Assembly (NCBI GenBank): GCA_964590575.1
Contig: CAZPWM010000006.1
Location: 1-61,986 of the forward strand
Direction: 5' to 3'
From: an uncultured archaeon
Lineage (GTDB): Archaea; Asgardarchaeota; Thorarchaeia; Thorarchaeales; Thorarchaeaceae
Length of the DNA: 61,986 nt
A program made the translations under genes and the position numbers. Below are positions 26,128 to 61,986 of this stretch, piece by piece. A model generated the notes under the pieces. It made no database searches and was not told where the DNA came from. It saw only the letters and a program-made list of their open reading frames with translations. Position 1 is the stretch's first letter. Every line of letters begins with the position of its first letter.

Positions 26128-26916
26128 TTGAGGGGAAATCATTTGTATCTAGCTTATATTGACGAGTCCGGCAAAGCAAGTAAAAGAGATCGGACGCCAA
26201 TATATGTACAAGCAGCCTTTGTAATTCTTGATTATGAATGGCAATCAATTGATAATGCAGTTAATAGATTGAAAACGAAGTGGTTTCCAAATTTACCACC
26301 TTCGGATGTAGAGCTTCATGCATATGAACTCGTGAACCAGAAAGGAAAATACAAAGCGCTCGGTAAAACAAGCTCACTCAAATTATTGGAAGAAGCTTAT
26401 GACTTGATTGTTGGAATAAACTGTACGCTTCTAGCTTCAGTGATTCATAAAAAGAATCTATACAAGCTGAAAACCCAAGATGAAATTGAGTTATGGTCAC
26501 ATCGTTTTCTGTTTGAACGAATCTGTAAATATCTTGAGAAAGAAAATGAGACCCGAATTAAAGCAAACGACACACCGCACTATGGACTTCTAATGATAGA
26601 TTCAGTCAATACAAAGTATGACAACACCATTAGAAGAAAGTACCATGATTTCTTTCATTTTGGAACTCATTATGAAAAGAACGATTACCTTATTGAAGAC
26701 CCTCTTTTTGTTGACTCTCAATATAGAAACATGTCACAACTAGTCGATATTGTTGCATATACAGTATTCCGACGAACGAATAACACCACAAAACAGCATA
26801 ATAAGTGGAATATCATCGATCACACAATAGAGAAAGGATATCAAACTCTTATTCCTCGATTTGATAAAGGTCCCAAAGGACAAATTCTTGGATGTGGAAT
26901 AAAGCATTTCCCATAA
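26128..26916 (+). CDS. DUF3800 domain protein (RNase H-like fold)
   Basis: YIDESG N-terminus, ELHA, FVDS...QLVDIVAY. Confidence 0.88.
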   Translation: MRGNHLYLAYIDESGKASKRDRTPIYVQAAFVILDYEWQSIDNAVNRLKTKWFPNLPPSDVELHAYELVNQKGKYKALGKTSSLKLLEEAYDLIVGINCTLLASVIHKKNLYKLKTQDEIELWSHRFLFERICKYLEKENETRIKANDTPHYGLLMIDSVNTKYDNTIRRKYHDFFHFGTHYEKNDYLIEDPLFVDSQYRNMSQLVDIVAYTVFRRTNNTTKQHNKWNIIDHTIEKGYQTLIPRFDKGPKGQILGCGIKHFP

Positions 26917-44283: not shown

Positions 44284-48265
<3,982 letters not shown>

Positions 48266-48363
48266 TAGGTCTAAAACAGAGACCACGGCGGAAACATTAA
48301 AACTGAATATCCTTTGACGCTATCCGTTCGGGTCTACCAACAAATCACATACGAGGTCATACA

Positions 48364-48657
48364 ATGAGCCTGAATCAACCAATAGCAAGTGCAGTAAGTA
48401 CAGGTGAGTGCAAGATTGGCGCAAAGTCTTCAATTGACGCGATCAAGACAGGCAAGGCTAAACTTGTCGTCGTTGCAGCGAACTGTCCTAAAGATGAGTT
48501 TGAAGACATAGTACAATTAGCAAAGCTCGCTGAAATAAAGGTCCAGAAGTTTGAAGGTACTTCCTGGGACTTGGGTGAGGTTGTAGGTAAACCATTCATG
48601 GTTTCAGCAATAGCTATTATCAAGCCTGGCGACTCAAAAATCCTGAAGATGGTATGA
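48364..48657 (+). CDS. rpl30e: 50S ribosomal protein L30e
   Basis: AKLVVVAANCP, LGEVVGKPF, PGDSKIL; conserved position. Confidence 0.96.
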   Translation: MSLNQPIASAVSTGECKIGAKSSIDAIKTGKAKLVVVAANCPKDEFEDIVQLAKLAEIKVQKFEGTSWDLGEVVGKPFMVSAIAIIKPGDSKILKMV

Positions 48658-48667
48658 GGCGAGTCAA

Positions 48668-49102
48668 TTGGGACGAGTTAAGCTCTCTATGGATGACATG
48701 GCTCTAATCGCCAAGTTCGAGCAAATCACAGGCGCTGCTGCAGTTGATATTATTCGTGATGATGAGGGAGAACGTATCATAGTCGTAGTTCGTCCAAAGC
48801 AATTAGGAAAAGCGATTGGTCGCGGCGGAGTAAATGTGAAAGCCGCGTCAGACGCCTTTGGGCGTGTTGTTGATGTTGTCGAGATGGCTGAAACTGCTGA
48901 GGCTTTTGTTATGAGTGCGCTCGCTCCGGCTAGAGTTGAAGGTGTAAAGATTATAGAGCGCCGTGATGGCACTAAGGTAGCATCAGTAACTGTCAACAAC
49001 GAAGACCGAGGAATCGCAATTGGTCGTGACGGTCGAAATGTTGCTCGGGCTCGCATTTTAGTACGTCGTCACTTCGATTTGAACAATGTTGTAATTGCCT
49101 GA
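48668..49102 (+). CDS. nusA: Archaeal NusA
   Basis: Two KH motifs AIGRGG and AIGRDGRN; conserved position. Confidence 0.96.
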   Translation: MGRVKLSMDDMALIAKFEQITGAAAVDIIRDDEGERIIVVVRPKQLGKAIGRGGVNVKAASDAFGRVVDVVEMAETAEAFVMSALAPARVEGVKIIERRDGTKVASVTVNNEDRGIAIGRDGRNVARARILVRRHFDLNNVVIA

Positions 49103-49108
49103 AGTGTG

Positions 49109-49195
49109 CTGGAAGCGTTCTTTTCATAATCGTTCATTGTAAATTGGACAAACTTGGGTTTCAAGTAGTCCGCCCAAGAACGACACTGGGCTTGG
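49109..49195 (-). ncRNA. omega/reRNA-like scaffold 1 plus flank-derived guide
   Basis: Hairpin GCCCAG-TGTCGTTC-TTGGGC, second stem, CAATTTACAATGAACGAT end pairing with the loop (pseudoknot); overlaps the tnpB stop codon. Confidence 0.72.
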
Positions 49196-51260
49196 ATTGT
49201 TGAACATGCATTATGTTACGCGCTGCATTAACATCTGCATGGAAATACTCATCACACTTTGAACAGTGGAAATATTCTCCTCCTTTTCTCTCCATTATTG
49301 AAGTTGCATTTTCCACACGCACTCCTCTTTCTCCACACACATGACAAGTCTGAGAGGTCCAAGCAGGGTTCACCATACAGATTCCCCCATTTCTATGTCC
49401 AAGGGTGTTTCGACGATAGCGCACACCCTCAATCATTTGACCCCACAGGTTAGCTGATAGATTCCAACTGTGTCTTCTCATTCCTCTCTTTCCTTGGAAG
49501 GAACGGAGATCCTCAAAGAAGATGGTCTTCACCTGCCGATGTTCACAGAACCACACTGTTTCAGCAGCGACTTGGTGGGAGATTTCTCTATCGAGACGAC
49601 GGACTTTTTGCCATACTGCCTCCAATTCACGTTCTTTTTTCATGATGTACGCAGGAGGATGCAGTCCCTGATGCTTTCTCTCCCAATTATTTCGTTTCAG
49701 TGTCACCTCTGACATCAAGATTCTTGATTTCTGTCGCAAGTGTTCTCTTCTTTCATACAGTTCCTGTCTTCCTATCATTTTCTCTGAATAACCATTTTCT
49801 CCATTTTTAACGGAAACTACCATGGAGTGCCTGAGACCTCTATCGACACCTGCTTTTTTCGATTTTTTACCAATCCTAGGAAGTGTTTCACTTAGAATCT
49901 TCTCGTCGGGAGTCATAAAGGGGATAATCAATGTAGCTCTATTTCCAGTTAGTTTGATTAAAGGAGGCGCAGTGGTACGAGATTGTTTGAGTCTCTGTTT
50001 TAATGCTTTGAGTTGGTCTATTCGCTCAACATTCTTCTTAGGCTGCGCTCGCTCTTTCGCAAGTTCTCGAGTGACGTGCTGAATCTGAATCGTGTTGTAC
50101 AGCTGTTGATTCATGTCATCATACTTTTCAGCTCTGAATTCCAATTCAACCGACCGTTTCAAGTCGCCTCGAAACCTCACCTCTTCAGCCATCATCCTTG
50201 CACGTGCAGCTTTTCGTGGAAACCAGTTGAGAAAACGCAATCGAAGAGTGTGGCTTCTATAAGGGGAGTGTGAATCATCTTCAAATCCTATCACACCAGG
50301 AGGAGTCTTGATGTACAGTACTATCTCATCCTGTCTCTGTGGATCAGGTGAGAACCAATAGCCTTGTCCTGTTGCATTTTCCGTGGATGCGGAATAATCT
50401 ATTGTGTCTTTTTGAAAGACAGGTATTTCGAAAGGAAAACCAGATTGATGCCAATTATTGATTAGATTCCTAATGAATCCCTCTGCTTGATTTTTCAAAA
50501 CTGATTGCTTGAGGAGTTCATGTGCTCTAAGTTTCATTCTATTTTCTTGTAGTGGGAATGATTTTGATAATTCATCTCTTAAGACTCGTCGGACTTGTCT
50601 ACATGCTGATAGAGCGTAATGAAAGTCACCTGCTGCTTTGATGGCAATAGTGTCCTTGAGAAGTCTCACAATGTCGGAAGGTATCCTCTTGTTAATGACC
50701 AATCTCCTAGTATGCTCATCATCAACGACGAGAATCTCGAGTAGTGAGTTGACCAATTTTCTCCGGGTATAGTCGGAATGAATAATCCGAGCCGCCGTTT
50801 CAAGAACACTTCGATGCATTCGTTCATGGACTAGTTTACCAAAGTCGTTGTTTGTACCCCATTTGAGATGATTCTTCTTCTTGAGAATAACATTCATCAT
50901 TCCATGGTACTCACTTATCTCTCGACCTAACTCATAAGCATATGACTGATTTGAGAACACCCTCTCCAAAACTAAATTGACAGCTATTCGATAATTTCTA
51001 AAACTCTGGCCAAGAACTGATAGATCCAAATCACTACATTTTCGGCCAGTGTGTGAAAATCCTAATGATGATATAGATTTTGCAGGACTTTTTCCAGTGC
51101 CTTTTCTTGCAACAACTCGATGGTACGAATTCAAGTCGAACTTTTGAGATAGAAAGGTCGATGATGGACAACGATAGTTACCGTCCATTGTAAATTGCTT
51201 TAGTCCTTCATCAGAAGAAACAATCTGCTCGCGGGAACGGCGCCGCGATGTTTTGGTCAT
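49161..51260 (-). CDS. tnpB: Enlarged TnpB/Cas12-like RNA-guided RuvC endonuclease
   Basis: RuvC-I GVDRG, RuvC-II FFEDL, VNPAWTSQTCHVCG...FHCSKC...HADVNAARNI; GGTGA SD and TTAAATA box upstream. Confidence 0.92.
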   Translation of the reverse strand: MTKTSRRRSREQIVSSDEGLKQFTMDGNYRCPSSTFLSQKFDLNSYHRVVARKGTGKSPAKSISSLGFSHTGRKCSDLDLSVLGQSFRNYRIAVNLVLERVFSNQSYAYELGREISEYHGMMNVILKKKNHLKWGTNNDFGKLVHERMHRSVLETAARIIHSDYTRRKLVNSLLEILVVDDEHTRRLVINKRIPSDIVRLLKDTIAIKAAGDFHYALSACRQVRRVLRDELSKSFPLQENRMKLRAHELLKQSVLKNQAEGFIRNLINNWHQSGFPFEIPVFQKDTIDYSASTENATGQGYWFSPDPQRQDEIVLYIKTPPGVIGFEDDSHSPYRSHTLRLRFLNWFPRKAARARMMAEEVRFRGDLKRSVELEFRAEKYDDMNQQLYNTIQIQHVTRELAKERAQPKKNVERIDQLKALKQRLKQSRTTAPPLIKLTGNRATLIIPFMTPDEKILSETLPRIGKKSKKAGVDRGLRHSMVVSVKNGENGYSEKMIGRQELYERREHLRQKSRILMSEVTLKRNNWERKHQGLHPPAYIMKKERELEAVWQKVRRLDREISHQVAAETVWFCEHRQVKTIFFEDLRSFQGKRGMRRHSWNLSANLWGQMIEGVRYRRNTLGHRNGGICMVNPAWTSQTCHVCGERGVRVENATSIMERKGGEYFHCSKCDEYFHADVNAARNIMHVQQSKPSVVLGRTT
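51164..51250 (-). ncRNA. Second omega-RNA-like scaffold plus 16-nt promoter-matching guide, within the tnpB 5' coding region
   Basis: Hairpin TCGCGG-CGCCGTTC-CCGCGA, CAATTTACAATGGACGGT end, then AACTATCGTTGTCCAT. Confidence 0.68.
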
Positions 51261-51293
51261 CGACCTTTCACCATAATGATTTTCTGTTCGAGA

Positions 51294-51342
51294 TATTTAA
51301 GTCCATACTTCGTATGGACAACGATAGTTATCAGATTAAAAG
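51294..51342. promoter_or_regulatory. Divergent promoter region containing the protospacer (51314-51329) for guide 2
   Basis: TTAAATA box on minus strand at 51294-51300; palindrome GTCCATAC-TTC-GTATGGAC; exact 17-bp repeat of 51164-51180. Confidence 0.62.
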
Positions 51343-51382
51343 AACATACAATTTTTTGATATTAAAATAATGCAACATTTCG

Positions 51383-54300
51383 ATGAATAAAGACATTTTT
51401 ATCGAATCAATACATAATAGATTACTCGTAAAAAACAAGAAAAATATAAAGAAAAACGATGGTATGATTGTGATGACTCGTAAGAGGGGACGTCCAACCA
51501 AACCAATACCAGTACATCCTGAACGAGTCATATCAAGAGCTTTTCAGACTGGTCTCTCTTCTACAGTTGAGCTTCAAAGGACTATTAGTAACAAGACATC
51601 ACGAAAGCATTACGAAAGCTCTCGCAATAGTCTGAATATCGCACGTCAAGTATACATGTTAACAAAAAACAAAGGCAATCCTGATCATTCATATTTTCTG
51701 AAGGCTGAGCCACAGATTCGAGATAATACTCACAAGATGCTTTTTGAAAATGGAGCCAAATACAATTTTACGGAGATCCAGCGACAGAAGAAATCTGATG
51801 ACACAGTCGGTCCCATCAATCAAAGATTGAATGCATGTGGAGCTGCACTGAGAGAGTTTGCCCATAGAGAATTCCCGTTTCCAGATCCTAAAGACTTTGG
51901 AATTCGCATCCAACAAGCTGGAAACACGGCAAAACAGTTCAGAGTGGCTGGATACGATGAATCATCCTATGGGCCTCGAGTTACCCTTGCACATCCAGAT
52001 CTCCCTTCAATGGACTTTGGTGATGCAGTCCGCAGTCACAATGAGTATCTTGCGACATTCTGTGCAATTCATGATGTTCCAGTTAGAGAAACCACTCGGT
52101 ACTCAAACTTGTTCCTCCTTCTTATTCGGCCCTATCTAGAGATGATTTATTCTGAGTATAAAGTCGGAAAATCCGGTTTTCAGAAAGGAGTGAACAATGC
52201 ACTGCGTCAGGTGAAGAAACTGATTGTGGAGGCTGGATTTCGACCTACCAAGTATAAGGAAGAAAGGGTGACCAGAAACTCTGAATTTGAATCCCCTCCT
52301 ACAAGTCTTAATTTCTTTGATGAACAGATTGAGGATGCTAAGAAATTCTATGGCCATTTGCATCCATTAGTCACTGAACTTGAGCGAATAAGGAATGGTG
52401 GAGTAACGAGAACTTATGCACCAGAAGACCCTGAAGATAAGTGCTTGACGATAAAGGATGTAGAATACATCAGAGATAAGGCGGTGAAAAGGGCGAGAAT
52501 AGCTGGGTCTATACTCCATAGACGAATTGCTGCCCTCTTTCCAAGTCCGTGGCATCTCAATGATGTCATATTTCGTGGAGACCGGTATGTTGGGAACTCT
52601 GACTATGTCATAGTTTCAGAGGTGCCTTTACAGACGAAGCGCGTCTCTGGAAAGGTCGACCTAATACTCTTCGAGCGAGTAATAACAGAGGATGGCAAGC
52701 TCGTCCTATGGGAACCGAAACTCGTCCTAGAGATTAAAACTCGAAAGGCTCAGAGATGGTGGATCGAGCCCGACTACAAAAATTCCGAGGTCAGATCGAT
52801 TCAAAGAGTGGTCAGCGAGTTTCCTATGGAAGACATCCCATTGAATAATGATATGTGGAATTCTATCATCAATTCAACTCCCAGAAACTCCACCCAGAAC
52901 CAGTTGAATGAGTATACCCAACTTCTTGCTGATTCCTTTCAACAATCCACAAAGAGAAAATTAGCAACGATTCTGACTGGAACTGTCATCATAGATTCTA
53001 GCTCAGAAATTGAAGAAGTTAGGAGTATCTTGGAACTTCTAGTTATACACTCATATGAAGAGATGAAAGACAGAAAACAAAGAATCAAACGCACGGCATT
53101 CACACCCAAAGGTTACAATCGTATTGCTTTGGTTATTCACAATCAAGCTGCTCCAGTGAGGGAGAAAGCTGAGGTAGCTACAATACCTTGGAGTCCCATC
53201 TATAATCCTTTCAAAATCAGAAATGAGTTCAAGAGAGAGTTCATTCTCTATCTCTCTGGCAAAACATCAACATCATCAGGTCAGTCAGCTACCTGGAATG
53301 CTAGGAATTATCACGGTCTCCAAATGCTCTACGACATTGAGAAGTCAAATGATAACACAGATCTTCTCTGGATCGACCTAGCAGACCAGTTCAGTAATTC
53401 CCATCTTGCTGAAGCACGATTACGTCTGAAACCCAGAGGATACTCCGAGGAAGAGTTGGTAAAGACTCATCCAGAACATATACGAGAATTCTTTGAGAAT
53501 GTTGAGGTCATAGGATGTCTAGATAAAATCCTGTCCTTCCTTTATCAAGAAGGAATCACACCACAGTTTGACTTTGAAAATAGGACAAATCATCCAAGGG
53601 TAATCGTTGTATCAGGTGCAGACACTCTACGAGAAGCGACTCCCTCATCTCATCGTGACAAACTCAAGATATTGGTGGACCAGCTGCTGAACAGTCTTCC
53701 CGATGACATATACACCACAGTTGTCTGGTTTGATTCCCCAGTTCCTTCTGTGGAGAAGGCCTTGCCATATTCAAGTAGGGCTCTTCTTCCATTTTATGAA
53801 GACGATTCGTTGGCGGAGATAGTGACAGACATCATTTGGAATCTGCCTGTGGCACCCATTGGGGCAGTAAGACCTGATATGTGGAAACTACCTATTATCG
53901 GTGATTCATCAATGCATGATGACATCAGGGTAATCATCCGTCATTCAATAACCAAATTAACCATTGAATTGACCCATGTTCCATTCCTAAGGGGTTGGTC
54001 CAAAAGGTTCAGGAACAAAGGGAGAGGTCTTGTTATACAGGAACGGAGCTTGGATGATGTTGTACCTGAGAAAGAAACACGGACTAGAATGAAATTACTG
54101 GCACTAACAATGACTCCTTGGCTGGTACGACTATGGCCAAATGAACATCTAACAACAGATTCAAGAAGAACTCTTGAGAGTCTAATTGTCCAGATTGAGA
54201 ATGAATCCAGACCGAATCTCCGAAGTTTTGTATTAAAAAAGAGAATCCTAAGAGAAGAAACCGAACCTCCCAATATCCTTGATCTACTTCGTCTTAGGCT

Positions 54301-56434
54301 TCCAGATACGCGTGATGCCAAATCGTATGCATCCATGACTGTGGGAAAAATCAATTCACAGCGACTTTATCGTGCTCAGAATAAGTTGAATGCAAAACCA
54401 GCCAAAGATACACCCACATTGCTCTTACATGAAGACTTCTTGATCCCAGCTGCTGAAACAGAGCCTGACCTAGTATTCGGAATTAAGTTTGAAACAGAAG
54501 ATGATGTGACACAGCCCTGGTGGATGGTCGTTCAAGATATCACTAATGAGGCAAGAATGTTAGTGGGTTGTTTTACTCATAGACCTGTTGCTAATGATGG
54601 TTTTCTCTGGGCGGATACCAAGATAGAAACATTGACGCAGCATAGCTTCGACGATATTCTTAGTCTCCCACAGACAATCATGATTGGTAAGAAATCAAAG
54701 ATGGGAATGGAAACTTGGAGTTTAAGACAAGGTGATGATGAAGCGATTGACTCAGGCGTCCTTGAGGTAATAAGTCGAGGCCGCTCGACTGTAGGACACA
54801 TTCGTGCTGTTCGGCAGACTTTCTCTGAACTACCTAAGACCAAACCTACTACTGAAATCTTGTTACAAGAATCATTTTACAAACGCGTAGTCGATTCCCT
54901 TAAGCGATATCTCGAAGTGGTGACCAAACCGACTCATGTCACTGTGCACTTAGAAATGGTGGATGGTGAATGTCAAGTCACATTTCATGATGCAGAAGAT
55001 GTTATGCTTCAGACTGTCACACTCGATAACACTGCAGATCTCATCTCTTTGCTCCGGTGGCCCATGATTAAAGACGGATCAATGTTCACTGACTCTGGGG
55101 TGTTTGTGATTTGGAGTGTCTTTGAAGACATCCAGTTTGGAGATTTAGACTTTCTAAGACCATACGTTTCCTACAAAGCCGCACGGTCTACTCCTGAGGA
55201 ACTTCCTACGCGAGTAGCACAGTTCTTTGACGAGGCAGAAGAAATCCAAGTGGGCATCGAACATGATCAGTCAACTTGTCCCATATTCTTGGATGGAGCT
55301 GCAGACCATGGAGAATGTTGGAGAATTGTTCTAGCAAACGATTGTCCTAAACCAGTCAGAAAGCAGATTGGAAGTGCTATGACAGGAGAGGAGATTAACG
55401 GCATCCTTGCACCAGAAAGGTTGTATGCTGGGAAACTGTACAAGTTTAAAATTACATTACCGACAGTATCCGAGAAGGATGAGAGTATCGTTTTCCACGA
55501 AGACAAGTTCATTCGCATATTTCTCCGCAACCAAGGGTTAGTCCTGAAGAAACTTGCTCCAGGAACCTATCTGAATGTCACAAGACAACAATGGATGGTC
55601 GAGATTTCGTGGGAAGATGATACGCATCTCAAATGGAATGCACAGTCCACAGTTTCAGAACTCTTCTTCAGAGGTGAACGCCATACAATTGAACTCACCC
55701 ATGGTCGTGGGGCAGAAGAAGAATGCGAACGAATCTTAGGAATAATCACTTCAGATATTTTACAAGAACAGATAGCAAACTATTCCAAACTCGAGGGAAA
55801 TTTGTTATCTGATCTCACAGACAAAGGATATACCAAGTTAAGTCCTCCATGTGAGCTCCGTGTCATCGAGTCGACGAATACAGACTTCAGTTTTGGAATC
55901 TACCCTGTTGAAGGAACTCGTATAGCCCCTTATCTTAGATTTACTGTCATTGTTACAAGTGAGGAATCACCGGATGCGCTGATTAAGGGATTAGATATGA
56001 GTTTCTCAGAGGGTGAGCTGAGTCATTATTCCATCAGAAACAAGGATGCGTTCATGAAAAAGTTCAGTTCATGGGTGAGTAGAAATGTGCCTGTCATAGA
56101 AGAATTGTCTGAGGAACCAGAAGAATGGGAAGTTACCCTTTTTGTCAATGTGAAGACACATGAAATCTTCTGGGAGGCTGAGCAGCACTCTAGGGAAGCT
56201 CACCAGACTGACCTTCTCTATGGTGACAAGAAAATCTTACTGGATAGTAGTATCGAGAAAGCAGAACAAGAATTAGGAGAAATCTTTGAGGCGGACGTAG
56301 TACAAAGGCTACTTCATATTTCCAATCTTGATGACGTCTTGAAAATTCAAATACCTGAAATGATTAGAAAACTTCGTTTTTGCAAACCTTCAGCAGATTT
56401 GACTTCTGAGTCTGATGACCAAATTCACCATTGA
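51383..56434 (+). CDS. Giant hypothetical protein with PD-(D/E)XK nuclease domain, AT-hook-like motif and degenerate P-loop-like region
   Basis: SEVPL...GKVDLIL...LEIKT...QLNEY; RKRGRP near probable start (~51474); LYLSGKTS...LLWIDL...VIVVSGADTL. Confidence 0.8.
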   Translation: MNKDIFIESIHNRLLVKNKKNIKKNDGMIVMTRKRGRPTKPIPVHPERVISRAFQTGLSSTVELQRTISNKTSRKHYESSRNSLNIARQVYMLTKNKGNPDHSYFLKAEPQIRDNTHKMLFENGAKYNFTEIQRQKKSDDTVGPINQRLNACGAALREFAHREFPFPDPKDFGIRIQQAGNTAKQFRVAGYDESSYGPRVTLAHPDLPSMDFGDAVRSHNEYLATFCAIHDVPVRETTRYSNLFLLLIRPYLEMIYSEYKVGKSGFQKGVNNALRQVKKLIVEAGFRPTKYKEERVTRNSEFESPPTSLNFFDEQIEDAKKFYGHLHPLVTELERIRNGGVTRTYAPEDPEDKCLTIKDVEYIRDKAVKRARIAGSILHRRIAALFPSPWHLNDVIFRGDRYVGNSDYVIVSEVPLQTKRVSGKVDLILFERVITEDGKLVLWEPKLVLEIKTRKAQRWWIEPDYKNSEVRSIQRVVSEFPMEDIPLNNDMWNSIINSTPRNSTQNQLNEYTQLLADSFQQSTKRKLATILTGTVIIDSSSEIEEVRSILELLVIHSYEEMKDRKQRIKRTAFTPKGYNRIALVIHNQAAPVREKAEVATIPWSPIYNPFKIRNEFKREFILYLSGKTSTSSGQSATWNARNYHGLQMLYDIEKSNDNTDLLWIDLADQFSNSHLAEARLRLKPRGYSEEELVKTHPEHIREFFENVEVIGCLDKILSFLYQEGITPQFDFENRTNHPRVIVVSGADTLREATPSSHRDKLKILVDQLLNSLPDDIYTTVVWFDSPVPSVEKALPYSSRALLPFYEDDSLAEIVTDIIWNLPVAPIGAVRPDMWKLPIIGDSSMHDDIRVIIRHSITKLTIELTHVPFLRGWSKRFRNKGRGLVIQERSLDDVVPEKETRTRMKLLALTMTPWLVRLWPNEHLTTDSRRTLESLIVQIENESRPNLRSFVLKKRILREETEPPNILDLLRLRLPDTRDAKSYASMTVGKINSQRLYRAQNKLNAKPAKDTPTLLLHEDFLIPAAETEPDLVFGIKFETEDDVTQPWWMVVQDITNEARMLVGCFTHRPVANDGFLWADTKIETLTQHSFDDILSLPQTIMIGKKSKMGMETWSLRQGDDEAIDSGVLEVISRGRSTVGHIRAVRQTFSELPKTKPTTEILLQESFYKRVVDSLKRYLEVVTKPTHVTVHLEMVDGECQVTFHDAEDVMLQTVTLDNTADLISLLRWPMIKDGSMFTDSGVFVIWSVFEDIQFGDLDFLRPYVSYKAARSTPEELPTRVAQFFDEAEEIQVGIEHDQSTCPIFLDGAADHGECWRIVLANDCPKPVRKQIGSAMTGEEINGILAPERLYAGKLYKFKITLPTVSEKDESIVFHEDKFIRIFLRNQGLVLKKLAPGTYLNVTRQQWMVEISWEDDTHLKWNAQSTVSELFFRGERHTIELTHGRGAEEECERILGIITSDILQEQIANYSKLEGNLLSDLTDKGYTKLSPPCELRVIESTNTDFSFGIYPVEGTRIAPYLRFTVIVTSEESPDALIKGLDMSFSEGELSHYSIRNKDAFMKKFSSWVSRNVPVIEELSEEPEEWEVTLFVNVKTHEIFWEAEQHSREAHQTDLLYGDKKILLDSSIEKAEQELGEIFEADVVQRLLHISNLDDVLKIQIPEMIRKLRFCKPSADLTSESDDQIHH

Positions 56435-56590
56435 GGAAGTCAGGCCATCTCAATATTGAATTAGTCCTGAATATGTTAGAGATATCTCACGCCACTTCAT
56501 AATCCTTTTAAGGTTACAACAGGCCGGAGCCGACAACCACCATTCAGTGCGTACCATGAATGGTACGTCGACCCTAAGAGGTAAATCATA

Positions 56591-57034
56591 TTGACAGGTT
56601 CAAAATCTCCCGTAGGCGAGTTCGCAGCTCGACCCCTCGTCCGAAAGAGGAAGAAGTTCCGCTGGAAGAAACCCGCTTACAAAAGGCGTGTTCTTAAGCT
56701 AACGAGGAAGACTGACCCACTAGAGGGTGCCCCTCAAGCAAAAGGCATCGTACTTGAAAAAGTCGGTATCGAATCAAAGCAGCCAAACTCAGCTATTCGA
56801 AAGGCTGTAAGGATTCAACTCTCAAAGAATGGAAAACAGATTACTGCGTTCATACCTGGGGATGGTGGCCTGAAATACATAGATGAACACGACTCTGTTC
56901 TTGTTGAGGGGATTGGTGGTGCGCAAGGTGGTCCCGTTGGAGATCTACCAGGTGTGAGTTGGCGCGTCGTGCGAGTTAATGGAGTTTCCCTTGAATCATT
57001 GATATACGGGAAGAAGGAGAAGCCAATTCGGTAG
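56591..57034 (+). CDS. rps12: 30S ribosomal protein S12
   Basis: [17 protein letters not shown]. Confidence 0.97.
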
Positions 57035-57044
57035 GTGATAAACA

Positions 57045-57695
57045 ATGTCTGACGAAGAAACTTTTGAACCAGTTGCTGAAGAAGCTCAACCCCTCGATGC
57101 TCCTGACCTACTCCTATTCGGAAAGTGGGACTCAACTGATGTACAGATCAATGATGTGGGTCTAGCTAGATACATCTCTTTGAAACCAGTACTGATTCCC
57201 CACACATCAGGCAGACATGCTCATAAAGGATTCCACAAGTCTAACATTCCTATTGTTGAACGATTTGCTAACAAGATGCTCAACGCTGGTCGTAGGAAGG
57301 ATAAGAAGACACGAACAGGGAGAGGTGCTGGCAAGAAACTACGAGCACTTTCCACTCTCAGAAGGGTCTTTGATATCATTAATTACAGGACCGGGTTGAA
57401 CCCCGTTCAAGTCTTAGTTACTGCAATCGAGAATGCTGCTCCCGCTGAGGAAACAACACGAATTTCATACGGTGGCATGGCTTATCCTCGTTCGGTAGAT
57501 GTTTCTCCACAGAGAAGAATTGATCTCGCTCTGAGATATCTCTCAGTCGGCCCAGTCCGTTCAGCACATAAAAATGCTAAGTCATTTGAAGAATGCTTGG
57601 TAGATGAGCTACTTCTCGCCTACAAGAGTGATCCCGGTAGTTTTGCTATCTCTAGGAAAGAAGAACGAGAACGAGTTGCTCGTTCTGCGAGATAA
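57045..57695 (+). CDS. rps7: 30S ribosomal protein S7
   Basis: LFGKW, NPVQVL...AIEN, VDVSPQRR, ERVARSAR. Confidence 0.97.
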   Translation: MSDEETFEPVAEEAQPLDAPDLLLFGKWDSTDVQINDVGLARYISLKPVLIPHTSGRHAHKGFHKSNIPIVERFANKMLNAGRRKDKKTRTGRGAGKKLRALSTLRRVFDIINYRTGLNPVQVLVTAIENAAPAEETTRISYGGMAYPRSVDVSPQRRIDLALRYLSVGPVRSAHKNAKSFEECLVDELLLAYKSDPGSFAISRKEERERVARSAR

Positions 57696-57710
57696 TCCAA
57701 TAATGTAGTT

Positions 57711-57730
57711 TGCACGGGGATTCCCGTGCA
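57711..57730 (+). terminator. Hairpin after rps7 (possible terminator or processing stem)
   Basis: TGCACGGG-GATT-CCCGTGCA followed by a pyrimidine-rich tract. Confidence 0.5.
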
Positions 57731-57808
57731 CCTCTATTCTGTTTTCTACCTCTTCAGTTCAGCTTATCAGAAGGTTCATTCTCAAACAATCAATACGAGG
57801 AGCAAGAT

Positions 57809-58729
57809 ATGAGTAGGACTTCTTTGGCATATCTAGCAATCATTGTGACTACAGTCCTATGGTCCTCATCATTGATTTTTGCCAAGCTTATTTTTACTGA
57901 AGTAGGTCCTATCGTCTTTGTAGCTTTAAGATACACCCTAGCTACTCCATTTCTTCTTGTAGTAACTCTTCAACACAGGAAAAAACAGACCATAGTAGAC
58001 GTGAAAAATAACTGGAAGATTCTCTTGGTCGCTGGACTTAGTGGACCTTTCATTTCTCAGATTCTCCAGTACATTGGTCTTGAGCTAACAGCCGCGAGTG
58101 ATGCCCTTCTTCTCCTGAACCTAACACCCATTTTCGCTGTTATACTTGCAGCTCCTGTGTTAAACGAGAAGATCACATTCGAGAAAGTTATGGGTCTCGT
58201 GCTTGCGACAATTGGTGCTATGCTTATTGTCATGAACACTGCTCCAGAATCCCCGACACCTGATTCATTGCGCTTCATTGGAAATCTCATTGTGATTGTA
58301 TCTACATTTTTCTTTGCAATTAATGGAATAGCAGGTAAAATATCCATCAAGTCAATCGATGCTGTTTCAACCACATTTTACAGTTCTTTGTTTGCTGTCC
58401 CATTCATTTGGATATCAGCTACCCTACTTGATGATGTGACAGTCTTACTCACCATGAGCGTGCAGGCATGGCTAGTCCTACTGTGGGTAGCAATTGTGAA
58501 CACTGTGATTGCATTCATTCTCTATTATGAGTCAATGAAACACATTGAAGCTTCACTAGTTCAAATTATGCTTAATTTGATTGCAGTTTGGGGTGTGTTA
58601 CTATCAATCTTTGCCCTTCATGAAACAATAACCTATCTACAGATTTCTGGAGGTGCGATTACAGTACTTGGTGTGATAATCGCACAGATGGCTCAAGTAC
58701 GTCGAAAATCCAAGAAAGACCATCTATAA
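57809..58729 (+). CDS. DMT/EamA family transporter
   Basis: Ten TM helices in two EamA repeats; GAGG before ATG. Confidence 0.92.
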   Translation: MSRTSLAYLAIIVTTVLWSSSLIFAKLIFTEVGPIVFVALRYTLATPFLLVVTLQHRKKQTIVDVKNNWKILLVAGLSGPFISQILQYIGLELTAASDALLLLNLTPIFAVILAAPVLNEKITFEKVMGLVLATIGAMLIVMNTAPESPTPDSLRFIGNLIVIVSTFFFAINGIAGKISIKSIDAVSTTFYSSLFAVPFIWISATLLDDVTVLLTMSVQAWLVLLWVAIVNTVIAFILYYESMKHIEASLVQIMLNLIAVWGVLLSIFALHETITYLQISGGAITVLGVIIAQMAQVRRKSKKDHL

Positions 58730-58752
58730 GGAACCATGTAGGTATCTTCTAT

Positions 58753-58974
58753 GTGGCAAATATGAATCGTAAAGATGCTTTGAAGAATCTCATTATCTTC
58801 TTTGGTACGATTTTGTTAATACTGACAGCAGCAGAATATCTACTTCGCGTTTATTCAGTCACTCTTGATCTTATTGTCGTCTATTGGATTCACATTATCT
58901 ATCTACTGTCAATTATGGTGTTTCTACTCCTGCTAGTAATATACATCGAAGTAAGGATGCGGTCGAATTCCTGA
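58753..58974 (+). CDS. Small two-TM hypothetical protein
   Basis: Two hydrophobic helices. Confidence 0.55.
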   Translation: MANMNRKDALKNLIIFFGTILLILTAAEYLLRVYSVTLDLIVVYWIHIIYLLSIMVFLLLLVIYIEVRMRSNS

Positions 58975-59030
58975 GATGCCCAAAGAGATATGTCCCACCA
59001 TAGTGACCAATGTTTTTCGAGGTTAGCACC

Positions 59031-60068
59031 ATGCCTGATGAACTCAAAGTCGGTACAGCGGTTGCAAAAAGAGGAGAACTCCAGAAAGGAGTAATCAAGG
59101 GAATTGAACTGAACACAACAACTAGTATTGACATTCCTGTTCTTGTTATGAATGGAGAGAAAGATGGACCTACTGTGCTCATGGTTTCCACACAGCATGG
59201 TATAGAGATTCAAGGTATCGAGGTAATTCGCAAGATAATGAGGGAAAAGGTAAATCCCAAGGATCTCCGAGGCGCAATCATCGGAATTCCGGTGGAGAAC
59301 CCTCTGGCTTTCATGCATCATCAGTATCTTTCATGGATTGATAACCAAGACTTAGGTGGAGGAGGTAGTGCTAGTCCTCTAACAGCGGACAAACCAAATG
59401 GTACAGCAACAGAGCGATTGGCGTTTATTCTCTGGCAAGAAGCGTGGAGCAAGGCTGACATGGTCTTCAACATACATACCAATGTTAGACCTGATTCACT
59501 TTTCTTTACTGAAATCAACGTTGGTAACCCGAAAACGAAGGAGAAACTTGAGAAAATGGCTGAGGCTTTTGGTGTCACGAATGTAGTTGAAAGTGTTCCA
59601 ATTGCCGCTGATGCACCAAACACACTGGCTAATTTAGCAGTAAAGAATGGTGTCCCTGACATTCTTATCGAGCTTATTGATGGAAGATGGATTTCCGAAC
59701 CTTCCACAACTGTTGGAGTTCGTGGGAGTCTTAATATAATGAAAACCTTTGAAATGATAGACGGCGATATTGAACTCCAAGAAGGAATCCCAATCATACC
59801 TGGAATTTGCACATTCCATAGAATAGTCCACGCAAATCGAGGAGGTCTTATTCGATTTCTGAAGACACCTGGCGACTTCATGAAGAAAGGAGAAGTGTTT
59901 GCTGAGATCTACGACATTTATGGTGACATTTTAGAAAGAGTAGAATGTCCTGTTGATGGTTATATTTGGGCTTATCCATGTGGTGATATTCTCGGAACTC
60001 CAGGAAGTCTTCAAGCTGTTCAGACTGGCGCAAACATTGCATATGTCTTCACATCAGAAAAACAATGA
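59031..60068 (+). CDS. Succinylglutamate desuccinylase/aspartoacylase (M14) family protein
   Basis: HGIE zinc motif, NIHT, C-terminal biotinyl-like hairpin. Confidence 0.87.
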   Translation: MPDELKVGTAVAKRGELQKGVIKGIELNTTTSIDIPVLVMNGEKDGPTVLMVSTQHGIEIQGIEVIRKIMREKVNPKDLRGAIIGIPVENPLAFMHHQYLSWIDNQDLGGGGSASPLTADKPNGTATERLAFILWQEAWSKADMVFNIHTNVRPDSLFFTEINVGNPKTKEKLEKMAEAFGVTNVVESVPIAADAPNTLANLAVKNGVPDILIELIDGRWISEPSTTVGVRGSLNIMKTFEMIDGDIELQEGIPIIPGICTFHRIVHANRGGLIRFLKTPGDFMKKGEVFAEIYDIYGDILERVECPVDGYIWAYPCGDILGTPGSLQAVQTGANIAYVFTSEKQ

Positions 60069-60156
60069 GTTTCATTTCTAGTAATTTTTTCGCGTATTTG
60101 ATACACAGGACGCCATGGCGAAACTGTTTTGTGAGAACATACTTCATTTCTCGTGA

Positions 60157-60699
60157 TTGATTATGATGGACAAAGTTCTGATTTGCTACGGAACACGATA
60201 TGGAACAACTACTGAAGTAGTCCAAGAAATGAGTAACACAGCTAGAGAATTTGGAGCCCAAGTAGACGTCGTTCAATTGGAGAAAGGAACACCTTTTCCA
60301 GCACCTGAAGGATATGATTTAGTAATCATAGGGAGCGGTATTCGGGCAGGACAATGGACAAAGGAACCTCTAGAATTCATCGAGCAAAAGTTAGAATCAC
60401 TCTCAAAGATCAAAGTCGCGCTCTTTGTTGTTAGTGGATACGCGGGTAATCCTGACAAGGTTGCTGAGGCTCAGTCAGAGTACTTGGACAAGATGTCTGA
60501 AAAATATCCGGGATTGTCCCCAATTTCCACTGCCTTAATTGGTGGAGTGTTCGAGTTCCAGAAATACAACCTTGTAGTCCGGGCTCTTGTAAAGAACATC
60601 GTAAAGAATCAGATACCCCCTGGAGAGAAAATTCCTGAGAAGATTGATTTTCGTGATTGGGATATGATTCGCGATTGGGTCAAAGGAATTGTCCAGTGA
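60157..60699 (+). CDS. Flavodoxin-domain protein (HemG-like)
   Basis: YGTRYGTT, IIGSGIRAG, DFRDWD. Confidence 0.88.
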   Translation: MIMMDKVLICYGTRYGTTTEVVQEMSNTAREFGAQVDVVQLEKGTPFPAPEGYDLVIIGSGIRAGQWTKEPLEFIEQKLESLSKIKVALFVVSGYAGNPDKVAEAQSEYLDKMSEKYPGLSPISTALIGGVFEFQKYNLVVRALVKNIVKNQIPPGEKIPEKIDFRDWDMIRDWVKGIVQ

Positions 60700-60727
60700 G
60701 CAAAACGACCTTGGTTTGGTGAAGTAG

Positions 60728-61108
60728 ATGAAGATTCTGAAAGTGGTCAAGAATCACAAGAGCGAGTTTCACGTCCCGTTGATAGCTAAGAACGGCGAGA
60801 TTGTTGAAGGAGAGGAGAAAGAAACCGAGTTGGAAGGTTGGCTCTGGTGTCGAAATAACTCCGGAGTTCATGGATGGGTGCCAAAGACCTACCTTGAACT
60901 CACGTCCGAATCAAAACATTATCAATTTCTCAAGGACTATAATTCACGGGAACTGACTATCGACGAAGATCAAGAAGTGATTGTCTTAGATGAAGAGAGC
61001 GGATGGGCTTGGGTTCGAACACCATTAGGAGATGAAGGTTGGATTCCAATGAAGAATTTACAGGAGTTGAAAGGTAGACCAGACTCAATTCCTGACATCA
61101 TGAAATGA
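60728..61108 (+). CDS. Tandem SH3-domain protein
   Basis: GWLWC...GWVPKTYL and ELT...GWAWV...GWIPMKNL. Confidence 0.85.
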   Translation: MKILKVVKNHKSEFHVPLIAKNGEIVEGEEKETELEGWLWCRNNSGVHGWVPKTYLELTSESKHYQFLKDYNSRELTIDEDQEVIVLDEESGWAWVRTPLGDEGWIPMKNLQELKGRPDSIPDIMK

Positions 61109-61200
61109 ACTTCTAGTAAAATCATCCGCGGATTTAGCATCCACTGTATTTTACGGAAACATTATGAAATGGTTATATAATCCAATCCTGGGTTTCGTAA

Positions 61201-61890
61201 ATGTTTGAGAGGAAACATTATTGGAAATTGCTATTGGTTCTACTTCCGATTATTCTTCTCAATATACCATTCCTCAATTCCGTTTATGATGATTTATTTT
61301 TCGCATTGGAAGTATCTCTAGTTTCCTGTGGGATTGGGCTCATCACTGCACTGTTTCTTGAAACATCAGGATTGAAATTTGGAGTTTGCACAAGTAGGAG
61401 CTACATGAAACTTGGTGGCTTACTACCTATACCAAGGTTCTTCTCAGGACTATTCTGGCCCATAATAATGGCATGGGATGATTTCCTATTGCTCTCTGAT
61501 GATTTGACCAAGCAATGGTTCTGGGGTATGGTAATCTGTTCTTACACAGGGTGGATTATAGGAATCATCTCAGTTCGTTATCGTATTTTGAAAGAACAAC
61601 CAGAAATTTCAGATGAAGAAGGAATTTCTGTGGATATCAATGAATACCGCTTAAGGCCACTAAAGAGATCTACAAAAGCCATCCTTTTGATAGGTGTGAC
61701 GTGTATCGTAGTTTGGTTTGTAATATCACTTAATGTCGTTCTATCATCTGGCAACCTTTTCTGGCTCGCTGGAATCTTTGTAATCGTCCTTATCTTAGGA
61801 GCCATTGTTTTTGTTAATGAACATCCTATCGAACTCATTGAAAGAGTTCCAAAGCCACCAGATGAACCACTAGATGATATCTCTGGATAG
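61201..61890 (+). CDS. Hypothetical multi-pass membrane protein
   Basis: About six hydrophobic segments. Confidence 0.7.
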   Translation: MFERKHYWKLLLVLLPIILLNIPFLNSVYDDLFFALEVSLVSCGIGLITALFLETSGLKFGVCTSRSYMKLGGLLPIPRFFSGLFWPIIMAWDDFLLLSDDLTKQWFWGMVICSYTGWIIGIISVRYRILKEQPEISDEEGISVDINEYRLRPLKRSTKAILLIGVTCIVVWFVISLNVVLSSGNLFWLAGIFVIVLILGAIVFVNEHPIELIERVPKPPDEPLDDISG

Positions 61891-61986
61891 AAAGAAGAAC
61901 GTTGCAGAATGCTCCCTTCTCATCTAGTTAACTGACCTTGTCGAAACGATTAAAAGCATCTCTCAAGGTGAGAGCCAAGCAGGTTC

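Follow-up and report, generated by a model that had tools for sequence, protein, structure and literature searches.

Can a mobile RNA-guided nuclease carry in one and the same gene a guide for homing and a second guide directed at its own promoter? This question is raised by a locus of an uncultured archaeon, which lies in the 61,986-nucleotide stretch of DNA that we analysed as a whole (positions 1-61,986 of contig CAZPWM010000006.1, assembly GCA_964590575.1; hereafter the window). On the minus strand, an open reading frame (ORF) for a TnpB-like nuclease is accompanied by two scaffolds of the omega-RNA (right-end RNA, reRNA) type, one overlapping its stop codon and the other lying within its first codons. 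A first-pass annotation, made from the sequence alone, had proposed that the two serve homing and autoregulation. We found that the guide behind the 5′ scaffold is repeated perfectly upstream of the gene, next to a short motif resembling a target-adjacent motif (TAM), and that the same layout, with different guide and target sequences, is present in 59 of 66 homologous loci. RNA-guided autorepression of a promoter region shared with a giant divergent gene is the probable role of this second guide, as far as can be judged from the sequences compared. The features are collected in Table 1.

Table 1. Positions of the nuclease gene, its two scaffolds and guides, and the surrounding element (window coordinates)
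Feature	Position	Strand	Details
5′ guide AACTATCGTTGTCCAT, 16 nucleotides	51164..51179	-	inside codons 28-33; identical to 51314-51329
Self-target	51314..51329	-	same-strand repeat of the 5′ guide; intergenic, within the promoter region
TAM-like motif CTGAT	51330..51334	-	immediately 5′ of the self-target
5′ scaffold	51180..51249	-	P1, loop, variable hairpin P2, ACAAT motif, pseudoknot heptamer; within codons 1-27
Long-range helix P0	51152..51269	-	13-nucleotide perfect inverted repeat enclosing the whole 5′ module
Palindrome 3′ half ACGAAGTATGGAC; TATA-like box TTAAATAT	51301-51313; 51293-51300	-	box 33-40 nucleotides before the start codon; motif only
TnpB/Cas12f-like nuclease ORF, 699 amino acids	49161..51260	-	RuvC triad and zinc ribbon, Pfam, Foldseek
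3′ omega-RNA-like scaffold	49129..49192	-	P1, loop, hairpin P2 (GGAC..GTCC), ACAAT motif, pseudoknot heptamer; overlaps the stop codon
3′ guide (right flank) TATGAAAAGAACGCTTCCAG	49109..49128	-	directly after the 3′ heptamer
External TAM-like motif AGGAT	56502..56506	-	element's left junction
Whole mobile element	49129..56501 (7,373 bp)	-	inserted between nusA and rpS12; empty sites of relatives
Divergent giant ORF, 1,683 amino acids	51383..56434	+	cargo or partner; start 48 nucleotides beyond the internal TAM-like motif

The 5′ guide and its self-target

The 5′ guide belongs to a perfect direct repeat of 17 nucleotides, TAACTATCGTTGTCCAT, whose copies (51164-51180 and 51314-51330) lie 150 nucleotides apart; this repeat is not due to chance. 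Only these two perfect copies of the guide are present in the 3.4-Mb assembly, and no other site comes within two mismatches of it.

For comparison, 75 loci and paralogs were collected (one being a duplicate), and 66 of them include the N-terminus of the nuclease and at least 150 nucleotides upstream. In an unanchored test, the best ungapped 16-mer match was determined between the segment +40 to +135 of each ORF and its own upstream region from -140 to -15. The median was 14 of 16 identical positions for the 66 cognate combinations, as against 11 of 16 for 4,290 non-cognate pairs. A match of at least 13 was reached by 58 of the 66 cognate and by 284 of the 4,290 non-cognate combinations, and the upstream region of the locus itself was best or co-best in 50 of the 66. 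The pairs were also anchored by a rule that requires G at position -3 in both copies and, in the upstream copy, T at -1 and T or C at -4; 59 loci were kept. Over the first 12 positions, the two copies agree at all 12 in 34 loci, at 11 in 17, at 10 in six and at nine in two, and only 49 of 3,422 non-cognate anchored pairs reached at least 11. Identity by position is 98-100% at 1-9 (88% at 6), 86-90% at 10-12 and 73% at 13, and falls distally to 66% at 14, 49% at 15-16 and 14% at 17. Before position 1 the copies differ, identity being 37% at -1 and 10% at -2. Such a seed-like gradient, anchored at the motif, fits an RNA-guided enzyme with a 5′ motif and not a protein operator.

In the TnpB and Cas12 enzymes the motif stands 5′ of the target, on the strand identical to the guide. 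Here the target is preceded by N-[T/C]-G-N-T in 59 of the 61 loci with a guide/target match. The upstream motifs are TTGTT (16 loci), TTGGT (16, namely 12 and 4 re-anchored), TTGAT (12), CTGGT (10), CCGGT (2), and CTGAT, CTGTT and ATGAT (1 each); before the guide copy stands the scaffold heptamer (ATGGC, ATGAC, ACGAT and others). The internal motif is YTGDT-like and is retained across differing targets; one of its forms, TTGAT, is also the motif of the ISDra2 TnpB. Unrelated guide/target pairs are carried by clades whose proteins share only 40-63% identity, the guides differing completely between clades, and among co-resident elements 131 of 136 ordered pairs match at no more than 9 of 12 positions. 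The presence of different pairs in one genome would suit private self-regulation, and the pattern as a whole is that expected of a co-evolving guide and motif-flanked target.

No guide/target match was found in five loci (L032, L034, L035, L094 and L098), two of which (L035 and L098) have in-frame stops; in L033 and L077 the match is present with another preceding sequence. In L032 and L034 the 5′ scaffold, the guide, the upstream motif and a TATA-like box are present and the target between motif and box is gone. These two loci may be natural derepressed variants.

Across the 59 loci the position of the self-target is conserved and its sequence is not: position 1 of the target lies 55-70 nucleotides upstream of the start codon in 57 of them (22 and 49 nucleotides in the other two). 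In the window the target is 12 nucleotides upstream of the TATA-like box. When AT boxes were ranked by a scored consensus, a TATA-like box with its first base (in the window, the base preceding TTAAATAT) 41-42 nucleotides upstream of the start was the best-scoring one in 32 of the 59 loci, and in the remaining loci the AT-rich target itself outscored it. The target ends 0-12 nucleotides upstream of this box, where, judged by motif only, the recognition element of transcription factor B (TFB) would sit. On the side of the giant gene, a conserved AT-rich box abuts the motif and is a candidate TATA box of that gene. A complex bound to the target would cover both divergent promoters. A scan for bacterial promoters and terminators was uninformative for the archaeal promoter.

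A palindrome, GTCCATAC-GAA-GTATGGAC (51301-51319, minus strand), overlaps the last 6 nucleotides of the self-target and abuts the TATA-like box. In relatives it reads GCCCATAC-(2-3 nucleotides)-GTATGGGC, the change being compensatory, and it may be bound by a protein or form a hairpin. An antisense action of the 5′ guide on the mRNA of the giant gene was considered and rejected: by motifs, the likely TATA box lies between the TAM-like motif and the start of that gene, which would leave the target untranscribed.

A structured RNA within the reading frame

The two scaffolds are built alike. In the 5′ copy, the stem P1 is formed by TCGCGG (51243-51248) and CCGCGA (51229-51234) around the loop GCCGTTC (51235-51241), and CAATTTACAAT is followed by the heptamer GGACGGT (51180-51186); the part from stem to heptamer lies inside codons 5-27 of the frame that starts at 51260. 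In the 3′ scaffold, GCCCAG (49186-49191) pairs with TTGGGC (49172-49177) around the loop GTCGTTC (49178-49184), and CAATTTACAAT again precedes a heptamer, GAACGAT (49129-49135), the stop codon of the nuclease being at 49161-49163. The loop and heptamer of each copy are complementary at 7 positions, G.U pairs included (one in the 3′ copy, two in the 5′ copy). The first-pass annotation had described two scaffolds of the same architecture at these places, with loop-heptamer pairing and a compensatory T-A to C-G change between the copies, and re-reading of the sequence bore this out in full. The 12-mer CAATTTACAATG occurs exactly twice in the window, which is weak evidence when taken alone (9 of 100 shuffles gave at least two occurrences with no more than one mismatch).

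The annotation had also suggested a covariance-model search. A model built only from 64 homologous 3′ scaffolds recognised the 5′ copy end to end (51180-51249; 29.1 bits, E 8.8e-7), as its second-best match in the 62-kb window after the 3′ scaffold itself (75.6 bits). Across 73 sources at E ≤0.1, the model found 67 3′ scaffolds as well as 5′ scaffolds in 20 loci besides the window. The 5′ scaffold is recognisably homologous to the 3′ scaffold, which points to its derivation from the right-end RNA of the transposon.

Conservation and covariation of the 5′ scaffold in homologs, whose absence the first-pass annotation had named as a refutation, were found in an alignment of the 5′ regions of 59 loci. 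Pairing in the pseudoknot reaches 98-99%, and both partners have changed in 5 of its 7 pairs; one pair is CG in 31 loci and UA in 27, and another is AU in 23, GC in 20 and GU in 13. P1 is 85% paired, its pairs including CG 23 / UA 22 / AU 7, CG 34 / GC 24 and GC 42 / AU 16, and these swaps alter the encoded residues (RR..PR versus Q..W). None of 500 shuffles reached the observed values, and slid controls were 30-45% paired. RNAalifold, run without an input structure, predicted exactly the loop-heptamer helix. The hairpin P2, between P1 and the ACAAT motif, is variable and shows by eye many compensatory versions.

The whole 5′ module is enclosed by the long-range helix P0, in which GAAAGGTCGATGA (51257-51269, including the start ATG at 51258-51260) pairs with TCATCGACCTTTC (51152-51164), directly 3′ of the 5′ guide. 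In the alignment 70% of the P0 cells are paired, and 12 of the 13 pairs have changed on both sides. The start codon takes part in this covariation: the GTG start of locus L023 pairs with CAC, and GCTGATG of L014 pairs with CATCGGC. For the 123-nucleotide 5′ segment of the window the minimum free energy is -44 kcal/mol (z -4.43). In all 59 loci the frame runs uninterrupted from a start codon across the module, and a codon boundary always precedes the first base of the guide. An open frame together with a covarying structure means that the segment codes for protein and for RNA structure at once, and the pattern indicates that the 5′ RNA structure is under selection.

Two other readings of this segment were discarded. 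The ATG within ACAATGG is not the true start, since it is replaced by ATT or ATA in several loci and the frame continues open upstream of it in all 59; P0 was also rejected as a bulge-helix-bulge splicing motif because the window helix is a perfect one of 13 bp, free of bulges. On the opposite strand (51229-51248, plus), the P1 hairpin is followed by TGTTTTGG, and a scan of bacterial type marked it as terminator-like, the host being archaeal.

The nuclease, its homing guide and the mobile element

The 699-residue protein matches family profiles in its C-terminal half only. Pfam Cas12f1-like_TNB (PF07282) matches at 1.3e-12 (48.1 bits, cut-off 26.3) and PF01385 OrfB_IS605 weakly (21.5, cut-off 30.5). 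The NCBIfam model guided_TnpB gives 1.3e-19 with a score of 70.7, below its cut-off of 100, and several Cas12f and Cas12u models match too. Alignment to Cas12f 7l48 identifies the RuvC residues D473, E583 and D676, a split triad that aligns with D326, E422 and D510 of that enzyme; the zinc ribbon, a CxxC..CxxC pattern between RuvC-II and RuvC-III, is formed by C639, C642, C666 and C669. All seven residues are invariant across 36 homologs. An AlphaFold model built on the homolog alignment has a mean predicted local distance difference test (pLDDT) score of 78 and a predicted TM-score (pTM) of 0.68, and residues 1-35, which are encoded by the 5′ module, are predicted to be disordered (pLDDT 31-35, below 50). 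Foldseek matched the model to Cas12f (8j3r_A, 2e-10), Fanzor2 (9b0l_P, 9.7e-7), TnpB (8h1j_A, 3.1e-6) and the ISFba1 TnpB (8iaz_A, 9.8e-6), with modest target-normalised TM-scores of 0.41-0.57 for three of these matches and 0.36 for Fanzor2, and also placed it with Cas12g/k. By its catalytic residues, zinc ribbon, fold and right-end guide RNA the protein is a member of the TnpB/Cas12 superfamily; it looks like a large, catalytically competent TnpB/Cas12f-like nuclease.

At its 3′ end the gene appears to have the classical homing layout, with the scaffold ending at the right border of the element and the flanking DNA as guide. Since the 3′ scaffold ends at the element border, the 3′ guide reads the flank, and the flanks past the heptamer are unrelated among 64 homologous loci. 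In an alignment of these 64 sequences the 3′ scaffold has 91.6% of its cells paired and the pseudoknot 95.3%; none of 500 shuffles reached the observed pairing, and slid controls gave 28-43%. In the empty sites of relatives the sequence of the 3′ guide is directly preceded by AGGAT. Elsewhere in the window, 26671-26686 (plus strand) matches the 3′ guide at 15 of 16 positions (TATGAAAAGAACGATT); it is preceded by ACTCAT, with no GAT-type motif, and is probably a chance match (about 0.08 such matches are expected in the genome).

The borders of the element were defined by empty sites in genomes of the same genus, where window position 49128 is joined directly to 56501/56502 and nusA is followed by rpS12. 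In the minus-strand orientation of the window this junction reads ..AAAAGGAT/TATGAAAAGAACGCTTCC.. (slashes mark the junction). The insertion point is AGGAT/TATGAA, and the empty sites of relatives read AGGAT/TATGAAAAGAACGC; the occupied site of the window consists of AGGAT, the element with its end ..ACAATGAACGAT (49129), and then TATGAAAAGAACGC. Nine nucleotides, GATTATGAA (minus strand), are present at both junctions (window 49120-49131 and 56493-56504), so that the border is ambiguous by up to 9 nucleotides; they may be a serine-recombinase crossover core, a duplication or a product of chance. We assigned GAT to the element because the heptamer covaries with its loop. A related empty-site strain coexists with carriers of the element in metagenome run X4, where one contig (depth 2.9) joins nusA to rpS12 across 49102-56496, with the element absent and a slightly different spacer.

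The element of the window holds only two ORFs, neither of them a TnpA, and terminates 67 nucleotides past the stop of the giant gene. A paralog on contig C123 of the same genome (L142:163-783) has tnpA, the giant gene in reversed orientation and then the nuclease gene. Its TnpA is an IS607-type serine recombinase (MerR-type helix-turn-helix 2.7e-8, Resolvase 2.4e-26), and by eye only, the C-terminus of the same recombinase was recognised after the stop of the giant gene in four more loci. The family is classed as IS607-like because this paralog carries a serine-recombinase TnpA. Elements of the IS607 family have no terminal inverted repeats and produce no target-site duplication. The window copy looks non-autonomous and, having no tnpA, would need to be moved in trans.

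The first-pass annotation had taken both guides to have targets preceded by GAT. Both contexts are real, that of AGGAT lying beyond the coordinates it had covered, and the claim holds for the two window sites; the internal motif of the family is YTGDT-like, however, and AGGAT agrees with it in the last three bases only. The homing role given to the 3′ guide is upheld by the empty sites AGGAT/TATGAAAAGAACGC of relatives, and the second target by the finding that, in 59 of 66 loci, the 5′ guide varies together with a site beside the motif in the promoter region of the element itself. What had been described as a TnpB system does comprise a nuclease and two scaffolds, and is to be corrected in that the mobile unit measures 7.4 kb, includes a giant cargo gene and is IS607-like. 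The dual-guide, autoregulatory interpretation is therefore supported as far as sequence analysis goes.

The gene order of the window is rpoB, rpoA1, rpoA2, L30e, nusA, nuclease (minus), 1,683-residue ORF (plus), rpS12 and rpS7; the first four were named from translations and gene order, and nusA, rpS12 and rpS7 were checked in Pfam. At E ≤1e-20, 42 of the 87 genomes searched in the class contain a homolog of the nuclease, the own genome being counted. Phylum-wide, 47 of 400 genomes match at E ≤1e-15. The full-length matches all fall within one family (41 of 85 genomes), and the five genomes outside it show C-terminal similarity only (26-34%). The own genome contains five further copies or fragments, on contigs C123, C69, C193, C25 and C49. 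The giant ORF had no match in Pfam, NCBIfam or PADLOC and no usable one in the ESM Atlas. A search with its C-terminal part gave homologs (frames of 1,400-1,960 amino acids) in 40 of these 87 genomes. Of the 22 loci for which 1.3 kb or more of upstream flank is available, 17 have a homolog of its N-terminus in divergent orientation ahead of the nuclease gene, and we take the giant ORF to be a conserved partner or cargo of the transposon family. Left-end DNA (56100-56501) has a nucleotide match only in the own genome and, weakly (E 1.6e-4), in 1 of 27 other genomes of the genus. No Rfam family matched 48500-52000 at E ≤1.

Some further traces of the family were noted. In the own genome, C45:22933-22962 (minus) is an orphan 3′ scaffold fragment (..CCAAGTTTGTCCACTTTACAATGAACGGT) with no nuclease gene adjoining, and C3:1108-1150 (minus) is a short piece resembling the 5′ leader; both look like decayed element ends. 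Of seven loci tested from a sub-clade with a short 3′ scaffold, four lie 40-80 nucleotides from a tRNA-Lys(CTT) gene (L137:323-399, L084:272-348, L087:2664-2740 and L079:2701-2777), with similar right flanks (..GTGGCTTAGC..) across genera, which would reflect either site-specific homing beside the tRNA or an old fixed copy.

Proposed autorepression, its alternatives and known systems

We propose that two guide RNAs would be cut from one transcript of the TnpB-type nuclease. The 3′ guide would direct the nuclease to the vacated site AGGAT/TATGAA.., as in homing. The first ~150 nucleotides of the mRNA would fold into the second, smaller scaffold, followed by a guide of 12-16 nucleotides that matches the YTGDT-flanked site in the ~120-nucleotide stretch that separates the nuclease gene from the giant gene. 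When the nuclease has accumulated sufficiently, it would bind the 5′ RNA, and the complex would sit on its own promoter region and block access of TATA-binding protein (TBP) and TFB. The nuclease gene and probably the giant gene would then be repressed, in a negative feedback. A match that is short and lies next to the motif would make binding more likely than cutting: one report on the ISDge10 TnpB gives cleavage that falls with guides of 14 nucleotides or fewer and is absent at 10 nucleotides, with binding persisting (PMC13507860). It is because the match is short and seed-weighted, and because of these guide-length data, that we suppose binding rather than cutting. The helix P0 may also regulate translation, or set the 3′ end of the 5′ RNA. 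Loading of the 5′ RNA, binding of the site, the drop in transcription and the avoidance of cutting are all steps that we infer from the sequences. Beyond autorepression itself, we are slightly inclined to a wider proposal: a nuclease-competent mobile TnpB would multiplex two guides from one mRNA, a 3′ homing guide and a dual-coding 5′ autorepressor within the ORF, the latter forming a private pair with the bidirectional promoter shared with the giant cargo gene. Such an arrangement would be a precursor of tracr-L/CreR self-regulation and of TldR-type factors, and the pairs would diversify against cross-regulation.

Several observations weigh against autorepression. The loci are related, so that the counts overstate their independence; 7 of the 66 have no rule-conforming pair, and the promoter elements are assigned by motif only. 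The only known external motif, AGGAT, differs from YTGDT at -4 and -5, the last three bases being common, and it comes from one element, as an empty site for the right flank of the C123 paralog was found in 0 of 27 other genomes of the genus. The 5′ scaffold is without the GGAC..GTCC hairpin of the 3′ scaffold, and the covariance model detects it in only 21 loci at E ≤0.1 (window included), the rest being below threshold; equal binding of the 5′ scaffold by the protein is therefore not assured. Finally, the RuvC triad is intact and the window match is perfect over 16 nucleotides, and by analogy with other TnpBs self-cutting might be possible.

The last point bears on the alternative that the 5′ guide directs real cleavage of the own promoter region, as a copy-number or suicide control or as a break that triggers recombination. 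Invariance of D473/E583/D676 and of the zinc ribbon in 36 homologs suits this idea, as do the 16-nucleotide matches of the window and of several other loci, but most loci match over 12-14 nucleotides only, with distal decay, a range that lowers cleavage in another TnpB (PMC13507860). A break between repeats spaced by 150 nucleotides should also often delete the promoter and the start, whereas 59 of 66 loci retain an intact module; no repeat-to-repeat deletion was seen in four metagenome runs, which is weak evidence as only contigs were used. We consider cleavage as the function unlikely. We judge equally improbable that the 5′ module is a cis-acting mRNA operator only, the nuclease binding the scaffold mimic and blocking translation or cutting the mRNA, with no targeting role for the upstream repeat. 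That P0 sequesters the start codon and covaries would agree with such an operator, as would the processing of its own mRNA by TnpB, reported in PMC10278001. It would leave unexplained, however, the identity over 12-16 nucleotides to an upstream motif-anchored site with a seed-like gradient in 59 loci, and direct repeats cannot pair mutually in RNA. Cis-acting control of the mRNA may well coexist with DNA targeting.

The remaining alternatives dispense with a guide function of the 5′ RNA. The 5′ and right-end scaffolds are clearly paralogous, and a right end abutting a copy of the sequence that follows the motif is what a tandem or circle junction would produce; the module might then be a functionless relic of an ancient tandem right-end/left-end junction or of a duplicated end, its copies homogenised by gene conversion. 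Such conversion, though, would not break off abruptly at position 16, and the covariation of the structure, the frame kept in 59 of 59 loci, the fixed distance to the TATA-like box and the identity gradient point to ongoing selection across clades of 40-63% identity, which makes a relic very improbable. It is harder still to credit that the two repeat copies are operators bound directly, with no RNA guide, by the nuclease itself, the product of the giant gene or a host factor. Direct repeats near promoters are common operators and the conserved palindrome overlaps the end of the target; against this, the repeats differ completely between paralogs, even within a genome, so that the specificity of the protein would have to change each time, and the second copy always begins right after a heptamer of the guide-RNA type.

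If RNA-guided autorepression is true, guide multiplexing and a choice between binding and cutting by match length would already have existed in TnpB-type ancestors of Cas12, and a simple evolutionary route would lead from a homing nuclease to an RNA-guided transcription factor. The design would also be a compact natural one, a single transcript supplying the protein as well as a guide for editing and another for self-limitation, and orthogonal guide/target pairs would be numerous. Known dosage checks on the RNA-guided nucleases of transposons are proteins (Arc) and antisense or intron conflicts. The question is directly testable, since about 59 natural versions are available in which the target, the motif, the guide and compensatory variants are known. 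A TnpB with a second, 5′ self-targeting guide was not found in full-text searches of the literature or in passages of PMC10691335, PMC13507860 and 10.64898/2026.09.24.754181, supplements being outside the scope of these searches.

Among published systems, tracr-L of Cas9, CreR and TldR come closest to the proposed self-repression. The system resembles the TnpB/omega-RNA (reRNA) homing nucleases of IS200/IS605 and IS607 elements (PMC8612924, Karvelis 2021; bioRxiv 10.1101/2023.03.14.532601, Meers 2023) in its RuvC domain and zinc ribbon, in a scaffold that runs over the 3′ end of the gene to the right border, in the guide taken from the flank, in the 5′ motif at the left junction and in the serine-recombinase TnpA of a paralogous copy. 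It differs from them in the second scaffold and guide within the first ~30 codons, aimed at the own promoter region, and in the protein of 699 amino acids, with a long helical insertion and a score below the NCBIfam cut-off for TnpB. It also has a divergent cargo gene of 1,683 amino acids between tnpA and tnpB, and is confined to one taxonomic family of genomes. Repression of a tnpB promoter by a transposon-encoded factor is known from Arc of the IS605 family (bioRxiv 10.64898/2026.09.24.754181); Arc is a ribbon-helix-helix protein that binds DNA directly, whereas the present element has no such gene and specificity would reside in RNA.

No CRISPR array (and no tandem repeat) was found in 45000-61986; lacking an array, the element does not belong to the CRISPR systems. 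It nevertheless resembles the tracr-L of Cas9 (bioRxiv 10.1101/2020.05.21.102756), in which an active nuclease has a natural guide to its own promoter, repression being an expectation from sequence in our case. Tracr-L belongs to a type II CRISPR enzyme, whereas here the array is absent and the regulatory guide lies within the coding mRNA. CreR RNAs, including those of type V-A systems (bioRxiv 10.1101/2023.03.10.532045), likewise combine a degenerate scaffold copy with a guide to the promoter of the effector itself, and their type V effectors descend from TnpB; unlike the 5′ module, they derive from CRISPR repeats and lie beside cas genes, whereas the 5′ module derives from a right-end RNA, within an ORF of a mobile element. 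In TldR (PMC10705468), a protein of the TnpB fold acts with a guide RNA as a repressor at promoters, as we propose here. TldR has lost RuvC activity and mobility and regulates host genes, whereas in the present family the triad is invariant, the element was recently mobile and the target is its own. With its intact triad this system is not TldR, but it may act like one at its own promoter.

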